A DNA stretch of 64,000 nucleotides, taken from NCBI RefSeq assembly GCF_006345805.1, contig NC_042999.1, positions 47,554,001 through 47,618,000 on the forward strand. The letters are read 5' to 3'. The stretch comes from Octopus sinensis (Eukaryota). The first letter of the stretch is position 1, and every line of letters begins with the position of its first letter. Under the pieces are notes generated by a model. It was not told the DNA's origin and ran no database searches. It saw only the letters and a list, made by a program, of their open reading frames with translations. Of the stretch, positions 761 to 57,167 are shown piece by piece. Position numbers and translations under genes: made by a program.

Positions 761-942
761 GTTTGTTTACATAAAAAACATCTCTTTAAGGTGTTTGGTA
801 TTTGGAAGGGAATCCAGACGAAAAAATGTCTGAAGAATATTACAAAATTTAAAAAAAAAATTTTTTTTTCCTTCATAAGGACATAATTTTTTAAAGAAAG
901 ACCGGTTTCGCATTTAGCTTTTCAAATTTCTTGTGACGTTAT

Positions 943-1550
943 GTGGGTTCCACGGGACTATCCCTCAGACGTAGATGCACACTGCATCGACAACAGATTG
1001 CATTCCCTGAATATAGAATGATACCTTTTAGTGAGCACATTGAGAAATGCGCAAAGCAACTACTACCACAATTTTTAATCTTTCCATTCTACCAATGTGC
1101 TTTCGGATCATCAACACAAGTTAGACTAAACAAGGAAACATTCTTCATTGAAAAGTACAAGCCCAGACTCAACCATGCGAACATACTGATACAGAGAAAT
1201 TCACATTAAGGGAAAAGGAAAAAAAAAATTAAGCGATTATCTCCCTTACACCGGAAGAAATCACCCACTACCTTCCCTTATTTAGAACTCTCCGGAGCAT
1301 AAACACAAGGATAACTCTATTCAACATAAACATAACGTCACAAGAAATTTGAAAAGCTAAATGCGAAACCGCTCTTTCTTTAAAAATTATGTCATTATAA
1401 AGGAAAAAAAAATTTTTTTTTAATTTTCTAATATTCTTCAGACATATTGACGCAAATATATATATTTTTTAACATATAAGCCTTCTGTCGTTTTTTCACT
1501 CTTTACTATTTTTTATATATTCACCCACGTGCTTTCACAAACCAACTTTC
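943..1550 (+). repeat. 5' pseudo-LTR of PLE (includes a duplicated endonuclease C-terminus)
   Basis: Near-identical to 4873-5472; ORFs 943-1209 and 4873-5139 encode the same peptide with few substitutions. Confidence 0.95.
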
Positions 1551-1569
1551 TTATCTATATATTATACAC

Positions 1570-2937
1570 GTGGGACCGAAAATGCCACAGAAGACCAACA
1601 CCTCGGATAAAACCTTAAATGAGGACATACTGAAAGAACTGAAAAATATTAATACACAGCTTCTTAACCTGAACAACAAAATCGAGGAATCAAACTTACT
1701 CGCCCGGGAAAGTAAAAGCAATGAAGATACAACTCGCTACACTGACCAGGTTAGTAAGGATTTGCAACTGTTATACACAACACTAAATTCAATTTTCATC
1801 AACAAATCCGAAAATAATACACACGCACCAAATGAAACACAGCAGGACATCATACGCACCCAAATTAACCCAGCAAAAAGAAAAATAGGAAACATTTGGA
1901 ATACTAACCTGCACAACAGAAAACTCGCCTTCTGGAACATGATAAAAAATTCCAACAAAGCAGATATTTACGAGGGATGGATAAACTCAACACCAATTAT
2001 CCTCCCACGCAAATTCCAGATAAAATTAATTCCTAACGAGCCTGACGGACAGAGATCTATTAGGGAAAAGTCAGCTCTGTTCAATTTTAGATCAGAAATA
2101 GAGCTTCTAAGGCTCAGGGCCTCCACAAATGAGGAAAAATTTAAAAGCATAGACGAGGAGATGCACAATATAATACTGAAACATACCGAGGGACAACCCC
2201 TTGAAAATACATTAGATCATTGGAAGGATACCTGTGAAAAAGAAGAGAGAAATTCTCTCCTACGCTGGGAGAAAAACACGGACTTCTTCCAAAAATATAG
2301 TGAAACTTTCAAAAATGAATTGGGTACAAATAATCCCTTCCTTAAGAAAATTACAATAAATAAAAAAGAAAAACCAAACAACCCACGAACAACCCCCAAC
2401 TATCCTCCATACACTAAAAACAGAAATCACCCACAACCAACCTTTGCAAACCACGCAAGACTTAACAGGGAACTAGCTGACAGAGGACGCGTCTATGAAA
2501 TAAATTACACCAAAAACAGAACACACCAACAACATCCTAATACCAGACCCAACCACCATACAGCACAAAACGACACTAGAATAAGAAATACACCACACAC
2601 AAATCGCTACTACCCCATGAACCAAAATTACTGGTCCCCACTAAACACAAGACAAACGCAAAAAAACACTATGTCAAGCAACATCCCACATACAAGCAGT
2701 TCGAAACAAAAATAATTCCCATACAGAAATTTTACACACACCACAAACAATAACAACCATAGATTCCCTCACACACAGAACGATCGGGGGCAACAATACC
2801 ACCACTCCCTCGACCAAATACCACACAACCTCACAGACAACTCATACAAACAAAATTACACCCAACATTTTTTAGCCAGGGACCAGGGACACCAGGACAC
2901 AGGCTGGAACCTAGTAATAAGGAAAAACCGAAGATAA
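1570..2937 (+). pseudogene. PLE ORF1, orphan protein with coiled-coil-like N-terminus and N/T/H/P/Q-rich tail
   Basis: 381-aa ORF (ATG at 1582) directly after the pLTR. The same frame stays open past a single TAA (2713) to a stop at 2935-2937. Confidence 0.7.
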
Positions 2938-5139
2938 TCAATCTTTCAACCAAACCTCTTTCTAGCATAAAAATTGACATCCTCTCAAAAGGGCTCAAGT
3001 TTACACCAACTCCACACAGAGCCAACCTAAATGAAATCAAGGATAATATAACAGAATTTTGCAGAAAATTAAGACTAGCAGAAGCATAAACCAGTTTCAA
3101 TACTGAAGATGAATCACTAGTCAAGAACAAAAGTGAACACATCCCACACAGAGGAAGAAATAAAGATCTTGACGAATTCTGTAACCACATTGAGAACTTC
3201 CCCTACCATACTATACATAAACAGAAAGCTAACTCAAATTTTAACACTACACAATGGAAAGAACTGATAGAACTTCAAAATGATGAGGATATAACCATTA
3301 AGGAAGCAGACAAGGGAAATGCAGTTGTAATAATGGATACATCATACTACAGAAATCTTGTAATTTCCTTGCATGATGACGACCTACATTATGAAAAAAT
3401 TACCAACTACACCCCACAAAAGATAACGGAAACTCTATCTTCACTAATTAAAACCCATGAAAAGGAACTAACAACCAAAGAGATTGACTTCCTAACAAAC
3501 TTTAAATGCAAACCTAGCCTTTTCTATGGTCTGCCAACAATTCATAAAAGTCAAATTATAAATGAAACCATTAAAAAATCACCAAAGACATACATACACA
3601 CACCTAACCCGGGGGACCTAAAACTACGACCCATTGTAGCTGGCCCAACCTGTGAAACACACAGACTAAGTCTACTTATGGACATCCTCCTGAAACCCTT
3701 CCTTAAACATATCGATAGACATATCAGAGATGACTTAGATATGTTAAACCACCTTCCAAAAAAAGCCAAGGAAGAAACAATCCTGGTTTCATTTGATGTA
3801 GTCAACTTGTATACCAGTATACCTCATAATTATGGACTGGAGGCAATACAATTCTGGTTAGACCAATTTCCGGAAGAAATACCAAAAAGGATCAGTAAAG
3901 AATTCATTACTAAATCAATTGAATTCATCCTACACAATAACCACTTCATGTTTGACAATACATTTTACCGTCAAAAATCCGGAATTGCTATGGGTACAAG
4001 GGCAGCACCAGTCATTGCGAACTTAACAATGGGATACATGGAAATAATCATTTACCAGGAATCTTTATCAATCTTTGGAAACCCCTCTCTCAATACATAA
4101 AAGAGAACTGGAAACGATTCTTAGACGATTGTTTTATTCTCTGGAATGAAAACACAGATAAACTCCTAAAATTTAAAAACCTATTGAACAGCATAAACCC
4201 AAATATACAGTTCACAATGGAATACAATCAAAAGGAGCTCCCGTCCTTAGATATACTAATTAAAAAAATTAACCTTAAAATAGAAACAGACATTTTCTAC
4301 AAAGCCACAGACGCCAAACAATACCTTCTCTTTAATTCATGCCACCCAAGACACACTAAAGCAAACATCCCCTTCAACCTTTCAAGAAGGATATGCACAG
4401 ACATTACCCAGCTCAACTCATAGAGGATGGGATCAGACGTGCAAAAGAAATCAACATAGAAACTTTAAGAAAAGTTCAACACCACAACACACCTTCCCCG
4501 AAAATACTACCTTACATATCTACATACAACCCCAGAAACAAAGAAGCCTTCACCATCATCACCCAGAATTTACCAATACTTCATAAAAACCCCAAATTAA
4601 AGGAAATTCTAAACATACACCAAATCATTAAAAGCTACAAACAGCCTAAATCACTTAAAAAGATTCTCACAAAGGCAAAATAGTCTTCTGAAATTACGGA
4701 TGCAAAAGTAAAAAAATGTGGTAGATCGAACTGTGCAACATGTCCTAACCTGCTAGAAGGATCAGAATTCCTCTTTAAAGAGGGACAGAAATTCAAGATC
4801 AAATCTAACTTTCCTTGTGCCTCTGAAAATATAATTTATGTCATAAAATGCTCGGGCTGCCACCAAGACTACGTGGGTTCCACGGGACTATCATTCAGAC
4901 GTAGATGCACACTGCATCGACAACAGATTGCATTCCCAGAATATAGAATGATACCTTTTAGTGAGCAATTTGAGAAATGCGCAAAGCAACTACTACCACA
5001 ATTTTTAATCTTTCCATTCTACCAATGTGCTTTCGGATCATCAACACAAATTAGACTAAACAAGGAAACATTCTTCATTGAAAAGTACATGCCCAAATTC
5101 AACCATCCGAACATACTGATACAGAGAAATTCACATTAA
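2866..5139 (+). pseudogene. PLE reverse transcriptase + GIY-YIG endonuclease ORF, disrupted
   Basis: PLE RT motifs and FLDD. Stops at 3087 and 4681, frameshift near 4090, apparent deletion near 4400. Confidence 0.92.
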
Positions 5140-55600: not shown

Positions 55601-55649
55601 ATATCTTGATATCGCCAGTGATAAGAATACTCAAAATATATAACAGACT

Positions 55650-56486
55650 GGAATTGTAGGCCCGTCTCTTGCAATTCGGTCAATTGGATCTTGTCTTACC
55701 TCTTGTATAGAAGTGTAAGGCTGCAGCGAAATTCAGTTCGGGACTTTCTTCTATCGAAGGCATTTTAGCAAAAATGCTTCCGCAAAGACGTTGAAAATAT
55801 TGTCAATTTCCCCAAACAGGGACACAATTCAATTTTTAAACAATAACCAAAGCCCCTTCTGCGAAAGGAGAAGGGTTACGGTTTACAATTATTTAACAAA
55901 TGCAACACAACAACGTTTCCCTGACGAGGAACCAACAAATGTGATTACAATAGTCAAACAGTAATAATAATAACAACAAACCTTTTTAACTTATCCCCAT
56001 TTATGTGAAACCACTTATTCAAGTTCAAGTCATTGATGCAATGTTATACGAATTGCTAATACATACACACACACATAATAAGGGTGAAAAGTTGAATATT
56101 AATTTGATTAATATGAATTGAAAACCAGTGGTGTAGCATATAAGACCATAGCGGATCTTTTTCTAGCAAAATAGATGACCTCTCTTAATGGTTCATCCCT
56201 GTAATATAATACTTTCACTTTAATAGTTTCAGTATTAAAGTAAATGTCTGCATTACAATAGAGAGATGTTTTTGTTTCACCTTTAACACGTAATACTGAA
56301 ATAGTGGAGAAGGTATGATATTGCTGTGGGGTCGCCCTAGGGAAAAAGTTATTTTTTCTTGCCGATGACACTCCCCGGGCTTTAAGTAAGGCATGTGTAA
56401 AATTTGAATGAAATTGGTTGTGTAGTTCTGAAGTTTTAGGGAATCACACAGACAGACAGACACACATTCTCAGATTTATATATAGA
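55650..56486 (-). mobile_element. Helitron-like 5' portion (non-autonomous)
   Basis: Minus strand begins TCtatatataaatctgagaatgtgtgtctgtctgtctg..aaccaatttcattcaaattttacac. 3' boundary uncertain. Confidence 0.55.
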
Positions 56487-57111
56487 GAGATAATATATAT
56501 TATGTGTGTGTGGTTTGTTACAATTGCAGTTAAGTCTATAATGAATAGATGTGAAAGATGCACTGATTTATCTTGACTATATATCTATAAAATCCATAGA
56601 ATACATTAGCAAATACAAATTGTACTATGCTTTTGAATGAGGACGGATATTATATATTTTAACGTTCGCCACTTAGATAAACATGAATATAGATAACATT
56701 TCAGAAATCAAATCTGATCCTAGTAATCATAATTAAATAATTTGGAAACTTTTCAAACGTTTGAAGTATATTTGCATTATTTAGAATTTTTGGCATAAAA
56801 ATACAATATATTAATGTAAAATTTCACAAGTAATGAGGTATTTTCGGCTGTTATTAATAAACTTCTCTCATTTAGTATTTATATGTAAACACATGAATAT
56901 ATATATATATATGTGTGTGTCTGGGATTTTGGGTGTGTGTGCTGTGAATGTGTACGTGTGTGTGTGTCCATGTATATATATGTATATGTATATATATATA
57001 TATATATATGTATATATATGTATATATATATATATATGTATATATATTTATATATATATATATTATATATATAATATATATATATATATATATATATATT
57101 ATATATATATA

Positions 57112-57167
57112 TATAAAATATTATTTGAGACAAAACCACTATTTTGCAAAACAAACAAGGAAAGACT
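57112..57167 (-). repeat. Fragment of the 16.2-kb hammerhead element tail, next to (TA)n
   Basis: Reverse complement of ~16268-16322. Confidence 0.85.

Follow-up and report, generated by a model that had tools for sequence, protein, structure and literature searches.

What kind of element sets ribozyme-bearing repeats that share no sequence, each headed by an inverted copy of its own 3′ region, side by side in one stretch of octopus DNA? The question is raised by 64,000 nucleotides of Octopus sinensis (GCF_006345805.1, contig NC_042999.1, positions 47,554,001 to 47,618,000 of the forward strand), an AT-rich, microsatellite-dense piece of animal DNA that is called the window throughout and in which all coordinates are given. 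An earlier note on this DNA had singled out at least five units with a hammerhead or hammerhead-like motif and had described them as one shared type of cassette, copied into microsatellites by the reverse transcriptase (RT) and GIY-YIG endonuclease of Penelope-like elements (PLEs). Our analysis makes it highly probable that all five are insertions with the known PLE footprint, likely made by several PLE families. They form a mixture rather than one cassette type: a dead, once autonomous Neptune-type PLE (unit 1), PLE ends, one of which carries the tail of a long interspersed nuclear element (LINE) as cargo (unit 2), stubs or non-coding derivatives (units 3 and 4), and a single 360-nt retrozyme-like monomer likely moved in trans (unit 5). 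The one fresh point is unit 5, a non-coding repeat with a PLE footprint that likely shows a small ribozyme RNA moved by a PLE enzyme.

Anatomy shared by the five units

Self-BLAST of the window located six local inverted pairs outside microsatellites, namely the five units and a pair at 22248-22963, and pairwise alignment delimited the arms. All five units consist of two head-to-head copies of one sequence that have different end points downstream of the hammerhead. These end sites lie 50-230 nt downstream of the hammerhead cleavage position, and the spacing between the two sites of units 1 to 5 is ~100, 23, 73, 150, and 45 nt, respectively; in units 2-5 the arm is paired with a one-sided tail (~23, 73, 150, and 45 nt). 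Arms diverge by 1-13% from their partner copies, and the hammerhead motifs sit within the inverted or duplicated segments with constant polarity. The description of an inverted copy of the 3′ region at the 5′ end of each unit holds in that an arm is present in five of five, with one correction of orientation: unit 4 runs on the minus strand, and its short plus-strand copy is the arm.

Units 2-5 also have the target-site duplication (TSD) or microsatellite target expected of PLE insertions: a TSD of 13 bp flanks unit 2, and units 3-5 lie in (TA)n. A perfect (TA)5+ run is found within 9 nt of seven of the ten unit ends, vs 3% of other positions; because the ends are not independent, the fair count is that (TA)n adjoins four of the five units, unit 2 being the exception, which bears out the original observation. 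The reported lack of mutual similarity was likewise upheld, the only cross-match among eight unit sequences being one of 21 nt (E 0.033), and no remnant of a PLE open reading frame (ORF) was found beside units 2-5. Together the units occupy 11-14% of the window, including unit 1 at 4.6 kb. One published report describes 190 families of Penelope-like elements making up 6.83% of the Octopus vulgaris genome (PMC13282606), from which the density in the window is not far removed if the host is comparable.

Support for the hammerhead motifs

Reference motifs were drawn from 88 loci that encode relatives of the unit 1 RT, apparently host DNA within microbial assemblies. Hammerheads in these loci were selected by a descriptor and used, without any window sequence, to build the covariance models R1 (14 motifs) and R2 (8 motifs), whose E-values are rough. 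The covariation in alignment A3 covers these descriptor-chosen outside motifs and was not counted as evidence, since motifs chosen for their pairing make that argument circular. At E ≤ 0.01, R1 detects motifs in 29 of the 88 outside loci, 14 of those 29 being its training set. R1 places unit 2 at the head of its 23 matches on the window (E 0.018), followed by unit 3 (E 0.72); R2 (n = 23) ranks unit 5 first (E 0.004), unit 4 second (0.1), the two copies in unit 1 fourth and fifth (0.79), and unit 3 ninth (1.7). Single scores are modest, and the support comes from top model matches falling in independently defined inverted units; with the units at or near the top of the ranks, the presence of a hammerhead or hammerhead-like motif in each of the five was confirmed.

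Other measures give less. A strict core descriptor returns one match vs 0-2 in 12 shuffles at a lower stem threshold and 0 in all 12 at a higher one; a loose descriptor (score ≥ 9) returns 11 matches, three of which are (TA)n artefacts, vs a mean of 4.05 and a maximum of 9 in 20 shuffles. Descriptor counts, barely above shuffles, are therefore weak evidence, and the excess over shuffled sequence that the earlier note had asked about is slight. Most motifs fold no better than shuffles. The proposed Rfam check yielded no hammerhead among the 150 matches listed of 180, nor in a targeted scan of unit 5. Cores are undamaged in the window only in units 3, 4, and 1 (the last covaried), and that of unit 5 is intact in other copies, but the core is altered in unit 2 and in the window copy of unit 5. 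Decayed motifs had also been proposed at 15271 and 30903; neither is matched by R1 or R2 at E ≤ 10 (fold z +0.86 and −1.12). Both are unconfirmed and the chance explanation stands for them, even though the sequence at 30903 folds into hammerhead-like stems. Model matches at 29584-29632, 38747-38790, and 56200-56239 and a descriptor match at 61709, all outside every listed repeat, were treated as chance.

Table 1. Features of the five units and related copies in the window.
Feature	Coordinates	Strand	Basis
Unit 1: inverted, 5′-truncated pseudo-long terminal repeat (pLTR) arm with hammerhead copy at 893-933	826..944	-	self-BLAST, alignment, R2
Unit 1: upstream pLTR, partial tandem of 4870-5471, 96.7% identity over 940-1455	940..1566	+	alignment
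Unit 1: PLE ORF with DKG motif, RT, C-x4-C-x2-C linker, GIY-YIG-type endonuclease	1582..5139	+	motifs, homologues
Unit 1: U3-A8 hammerhead with a helix I of 6 bp, a helix II of 2 bp, and a loop III that is palindromic	5271..5311	+	R2, descriptor
Unit 2: left TSD, 13 bp, exact copy at 13368-13380	11417..11429		9 bp at most among 400 random pairs
Unit 2: inverted arm, (TAA)23 and hammerhead cassette, 87% identity to right copy, core decayed	11430..11656	-	alignment
Unit 2: 5′-truncated LINE with restriction-enzyme-like (REL) endonuclease (RLE), R4/Dong-like	11657..13180	+	RT end, zinc knuckle, RLE nuclease
Unit 2: end of PLE type with (TAA)n, a hammerhead at 13241-13290 (two core changes), and a 23-nt tail at 13345-13367	13181..13367	+	alignment, R1
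Unit 3: inverted arm 16126-16153, intact hammerhead 16183-16234, (TA)n at both ends	16126..16391	+	self-BLAST, descriptor, R1
Unit 4: non-coding main copy; its hammerhead (23671-23757) has an intact core and a long helix II	23475..24369	-	alignment, R2
Unit 4: inverted arm, 96% identity, hammerhead without helix I 5′ strand	24370..24495	+	alignment
Solo stub of unit 3 family, ends at distal end site beside (TA)n	44845..44957	-	alignment
Unit 5: inverted arm with the tail of 45 nt, up to (TA)n	46806..46964	-	self-BLAST, alignment
Unit 5: non-coding monomer of 360 nt made up of B, the tail (47127-47171), spacer A, and the hammerhead	46965..47324	+	alignment, fold z −2.96
Unit 5: hammerhead of canonical type; helix I of 6 bp plus an extended stem, helix II of 4 bp, helix III short	47246..47326	+	R2, fold z −4.21
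Unit 5: partial second monomer, 99% identity to 46965-47126, ending in (TA)n	47325..47484	+	alignment
Solo stub of unit 3 family, ends at proximal end site beside (TA)n	57116..57167	-	alignment

A Neptune-type Penelope-like element

Unit 1 combines in one ORF, starting at 1582 and stopping at 5139, a PLE-type RT with its DKG motif together with a GIY-YIG endonuclease at the C terminus, although frameshifts and stops break this frame in the window copy. The CX2-5CxxC linker of Neptune/Nematis elements precedes the endonuclease, and the CCHH motif is present, its last His being kept in the upstream copy. Both a partial-tandem pLTR and an inverted 5′ arm are present, and the upstream pLTR includes the 3′ part of the endonuclease as well as a hammerhead with an altered loop III. 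The sense-strand type I hammerhead of the pLTR is a U3-A8 variant situated 140 nt past the stop, and the unit ends at 5471 in (TA)n. From these features, unit 1 is read as a dead full-length Neptune-type PLE, the clade being assigned from the cysteine linker rather than from an RT tree. A core-like heptamer at 829-835 on its antisense strand was rejected, as no scan finds a hammerhead there and the actual motif lies on the sense strand.

Homology searches retrieved 184 proteins at E ≤ 0.001, and the following rests on the 120 matches listed. They are mostly RT proteins of PLE size, many with GIY-YIG, and those that are named come from molluscs or mollusc-associated assemblies, with no named PLE reference protein among them; the best full-length relative shows 73% identity over 86% of the RT piece. 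The closest relatives fetched, L011 and L016 (RT 44% identical), have a hammerhead shaped as in unit 1, with a 2-bp helix II and an identical loop III, but with C3-G8, so that U3-A8 in unit 1 is a compensatory pair. The L011 motif lies 109 nt past its ORF stop vs 140 nt in unit 1, and a further relative, L007, ends in (AT)n 60 nt past its hammerhead core. Viral contigs gave 0 matches to the PLE protein.

Several further features of unit 1 and its relatives may be recorded. An Asn/Thr/His-rich N-terminal extension of more than 400 codons (1582-2900) has no Pfam match, is longer than in most listed relatives, and resembles the N-rich inserts of Adineta PLEs (PMC3846280). Between the unit 1 arm and a perfect (CTAT)21 array lie 65 bp of unrelated sequence (761-825). 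Among the relatives, a second, independent U3-A8 hammerhead stands behind a PLE RT (L031:2209-2253), a 1.2-kb partial tandem contains two hammerheads (L044:1367-3772), a palindromic insertion holds hammerheads head to head (L087:504-849), and one element is bounded by inverted hammerhead arms (L051:4613-6869). Animal PLE sequences also occur in contigs of bacterial metagenome-assembled genomes (L001-L008), and proteins named symbiont GIY-YIG among the matches are probably host PLEs.

Units 3 and 4

The arm of unit 3 is only 28-37 bp long and lacks the hammerhead, and only ~35 nt precede the core. The main copy of unit 4 runs ~150 nt beyond the end of its arm and has a non-coding stretch of ~600 nt 5′ of the core, vs a stop-to-core distance of 61-337 nt in unit 1 and seven relatives. 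Neither a tandem monomer nor an ORF remnant is present in the window copies of either unit. Both are, by this structure, apparent PLE stubs or non-coding (non-autonomous) derivatives.

A 360-nt retrozyme-like monomer

In unit 5 the inverted arm is followed by B, the tail, the spacer, the hammerhead, B once more, and (TA)n; the unit has a period of 360 nt, no ORF, and 50% GC. A non-coding monomer of ~170-400 nt with a type I hammerhead, as expected of a retrozyme, is present, and the hammerhead has the canonical shape (PMC4209133) with a helix I of 6 bp, a helix II of 4 bp, and a short palindromic helix III. The window holds 1.45 monomers and one hammerhead, which carries two changes that other copies lack. 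These copies were sought by aligning one rotated monomer (47030-47389) to contigs of sequencing runs X1 and X9, which gave 1577 and 41 matches, respectively; contig depth is not equivalent to copy number, and the short contigs cannot reveal arrays. In X1, G8 is present in 6943 of 12830 depth (4 contigs) and the palindromic loop III in 31238 of 31238 (13 contigs), while a pairing-compatible change of G-U to A-U in helix I accounts for 13672 of 31300 depth. Patterns from unit 5 had 0 matches in metagenome contigs and 0 in viral contigs.

Diverged contigs bridge the B-tail, tail-spacer, and spacer-hammerhead junctions. The tail-spacer junction recurs in both runs and is bridged by a contig with seven other letters (depth 3321), and one contig shows a shorter form with a 27-nt spacer. 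Since 70 X1 contigs stop at 47167 before diverse AT-rich sequence, that end site recurs. Because other copies have an intact core and bridge the junctions, unit 5 is taken for a non-LTR retrozyme that bears the insertion footprint of a PLE, and this retrozyme-like repeat is likely moved in trans. A further step is offered tentatively, at somewhat less than an even chance: unit 5 may represent an undescribed, probably cephalopod, family of non-LTR retrozymes whose genomic copies bear marks of integration specific to PLEs, namely an inverted arm, a tail of 45 nt, two fixed sites at which copies end, and a TA target, and in which the tail of ~40 nt would be a conserved docking site shared by diverged subfamilies.

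The tail at 47129-47167 is common to at least one abundant family with different upstream sequence; that alternative upstream sequence is absent from the window.

A LINE tail between PLE ends

The interior of unit 2, ~1.5 kb, is the 3′ part of a LINE in which an RT is followed by a zinc knuckle and a REL nuclease; the stop lies at ~13074, and the 3′ untranslated region ends in (TAA)n. Its match to the structure of the R2 retrotransposon is weak (E 0.039), and the element is named R4/Dong-like from its motifs and the (TAA)n end. It resembles R4/Dong LINEs in its REL nuclease, zinc knuckle, and (TAA)n 3′ end and differs in being bounded by PLE ends. The exact 13-bp duplication bounds the whole of 11430-13367. 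The simplest reading is that the LINE tail was carried by the PLE end, comparable to the cargo that Adineta PLEs carry between their pLTRs (PMC3846280).

Weighing alternative explanations

A number of observations count against reading the five units as PLE insertions with a mobile retrozyme among them. Recurrence of the inversion within a family, on which the earlier note had made its proposal depend, is thin: an arm is present in one of three unit 3 copies, and no strand-change or go-back joint is seen among the unit 5 contig joints listed. The tails of units 1, 3, and 4 (~70-150 nt) exceed the published 30-40 bp, the left end of unit 1 has no TSD and is not at (TA)n, and the motifs of units 1, 3, and 4 individually score E 0.1-1.7, with chance-looking matches ranked among them. 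For unit 5, no single contig spans the entire monomer, depth over B and the tail is ~200,000-900,000 vs 14,000-50,000 over the spacer and hammerhead, and 100 contigs have different sequence upstream of the tail (47129-47167). The excess depth indicates that the majority of the tail-bearing copies either have no such hammerhead region or are members of other subfamilies; together with the 100 contigs, it shows the tail to be shared more widely than the 360-nt monomer.

One alternative holds that the non-autonomous-looking units, unit 5 included, are only 5′-truncated or internally deleted by-products of abundant autonomous PLEs and that no such unit propagates as a small RNA of its own. Most PLE hammerheads are indeed single truncated copies (PMC4209133), the B and tail portion of unit 5 is roughly 10-30 times deeper than its spacer and hammerhead, and unit 3 is cut off shortly 5′ of its core. 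A by-product would sit uneasily with a tail-spacer junction that recurs in diverged copies in two runs, with the short-spacer form, with a canonical hammerhead whose long helix I is unlike the minimal ones beside ORFs of relatives, and with the lack of an ORF remnant in unit 5. We regard this account as a serious competitor that is nevertheless doubtful on balance, and prefer a retrozyme-like unit 5.

For unit 2, an inverted PLE stub could instead have been in place first and the LINE have gone into its (TAA)n afterwards, in which case nothing was carried. Dong elements reside in TAA repeats (PMC3774820), and the cassette starts with (TAA)n. Such a history appears rather unlikely, given that the LINE 5′ junction is (TTA)n, without a (TAA)n duplication or a remnant of an earlier inversion centre, and that a single TSD encloses the entire unit; carriage of the LINE tail by the PLE end is the preferred reading.

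It is improbable that unit 5, as a retrozyme, owes its mobility to a LINE (RTE, Dong, CR1) or its copies to amplification at the DNA level, with the arm left by a repair accident. LINEs are abundant in octopus (PMC13282606), one sits in unit 2, and LINEs and PLEs have both been left open as movers of retrozymes (PMC7229834), but the head-to-head arm, one-sided 45-nt tail, and internal end sites of unit 5 match unit 1 and the published PLE signature, and unit 5 has no poly(A) or simple-repeat 3′ tail of its own. Least credible, and largely refuted for units 1-5, is the proposal that the motifs arose by chance in AT-rich repeats and that assembly or repair produced the inversions as artefacts: the near-shuffle motif counts, the unremarkable folding of most motifs, and the empty Rfam result speak for it, whereas the placement of motifs with constant polarity inside inverted or duplicated segments, arms that have diverged from their partners, the intact unit 5 core in other copies, and an orthologous motif in unit 1 relatives speak against it.

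Proposed mechanism

In vitro, the anole Poseidon protein nicks and extends both strands of AT-rich DNA, and its reverse transcription begins at two internal positions of the RNA, between which lies the tail (PMC11167929). By analogy, an RT/GIY-YIG protein would nick both AT-rich strands at the octopus targets and prime inside the RNA at two sites, the tail being the stretch between them. Two cDNAs primed at the two nicks would stop at unequal lengths and join at their 5′-truncated ends, which would yield one long copy plus the inverted arm. The partial tandems of units 1 and 5 could come from a template that was tandem or circular, as has been proposed (PMC4209133). The cysteine linker that defines Neptune/Nematis has been proposed to bias insertion to (TA)n (PMC8557442) and may do so here. 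The hammerhead would cut multimeric transcripts into monomers, acting as dimers in the case of minimal motifs, and is probably not needed for insertion; in the one PLE assayed in vitro, insertion did not depend on ribozyme cleavage (PMC11167929). For unit 2, a LINE would have landed first in the (TAA)n of a PLE end, after which a read-through RNA may have been moved as one piece. Priming by pairing of TA patches in the RNA with the (TA)n target was considered and is not supported, the overlaps being 3-5 nt, a length reached by 8-48% of template positions (combined p 0.11, 5 window sites); most unit 5 copies have a G in the patch proposed to pair with the target.

As unit 1 is dead and unrelated to the other units, each family likely has its own driver. 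The attribution to enzymes like that of unit 1 therefore survives at clade level only, the unit 1 frame being broken and its sequence unshared. PLE-type mobilization into (TA)n itself is supported, in that the anatomy agrees with published PLE insertions, but it is not a new system, since many hammerhead families per genome have already been described (PMC4209133).

Relation to known systems

Endonuclease-bearing (EN+) PLEs of the Neptune type (Craig et al. 2021, PMC8557442; Arkhipova et al. 2013, PMC3846280) share with the units an RT with C-terminal GIY-YIG and cysteine linker, the partial-tandem pLTR, the inverted 5′-truncated arm, the one-sided tail and (TA)n bias, a TSD outside microsatellites, and capture of unrelated sequence. 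Unit 1 differs in its ~1190 codons vs 650-800 aa for most matches listed, and the units differ by tails of up to 70-150 nt and, in unit 2, by a cargo that is another retrotransposon. With the minimal PLE hammerheads (Cervera and de la Peña 2014, PMC4209133) they share type I topology, a short palindromic helix III, the U3-A8 covariant, which is described in Schistosoma PLEs, opposite-strand pairs 100-700 bp apart, and families that are many and heterogeneous in one genome. Unit 1 stands apart in that U3-A8 comes together with a helix II of 2 bp and an additional base ahead of the core, and unit 4 in its 54-nt helix II arm.

Unit 5 is like the non-LTR retrozymes (Cervera and de la Peña 2020, PMC7229834; Li, Clavereau and Pollet 2026, bioRxiv 10.64898/2026.07.22.740005) in being non-coding, 360 nt long (mussel 350-390), well folded as a monomer, and equipped with one canonical-type type I hammerhead per monomer. 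It differs in its 1.45 monomers with one hammerhead, its 50% GC vs <45%, and its inverted arm and tail, which are undescribed in the available portions of both reports. The Poseidon PAc in vitro system (Frangieh et al. 2024, PMC11167929) has in common an internal RT start at two sites downstream of the hammerhead, as supposed for the units, an AT-rich target, and extension of both strands; PAc belongs to another clade, and in unit 1 the hammerhead and both end sites stand before the start codon, not within the ORF.

Earlier publications already cover inverted arms and tails, the bias to (TA)n, the U3-A8 core, the multiplicity of families in one genome, and the capture of cargo, and the families of the units may already be in the O. 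vulgaris catalogue of 190 Penelope-like families (PMC13282606). No report of octopus hammerheads, or of retrozyme copies with inverted arm and tail, was found in the open-access literature. PLEs have been proposed as movers of retrozymes (PMC7229834), and the enzyme that moves animal retrozymes has so far been inferred from co-occurrence and pLTR similarity (bioRxiv 10.64898/2026.07.22.740005). If the reading of unit 5 is true, a retrozyme with a PLE signature would be mechanistic footprint evidence for mobilization of canonical retrozymes in trans by PLE proteins, going beyond both of these lines and naming the RNA element; the footprint can be counted genome-wide, and the RNA is a substrate for the existing in vitro PLE assay. 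In unit 2, the end of one retrotransposon has likely carried the tail of another, and the case is a clean one. For annotators, the message is that PLE ends make up many of the short repeats flanked by microsatellites in such a genome and that Rfam misses their hammerheads.

Other repeats in the window

The sixth inverted pair consists of a 235-bp repeat at 22248-22486 and 22701-23045. Its right copy (22701-23045) is bounded by a 22-30 bp duplication containing the hammerhead core heptamer, and a candidate decayed hammerhead lies at 22963-23045 (R2 match 22963-23031, rank 6, E 0.94; fold z −0.66); the repeat at 22248-23045 is possibly an insertion into a sixth hammerhead unit. A 183-bp two-copy tandem with a third, inverted copy (35396-35767 and 9422-9561) has no hammerhead match. 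Five copies of a ~420-bp SINE-like (short interspersed nuclear element) repeat with an internal (TA)n tract occur at 8365-8784, 10950-11425, 34930-35344, 43088-43496, and 63134-63562. ARAGORN finds no tRNA gene in the window, and none in the head of this repeat, which may nonetheless be tRNA-derived.

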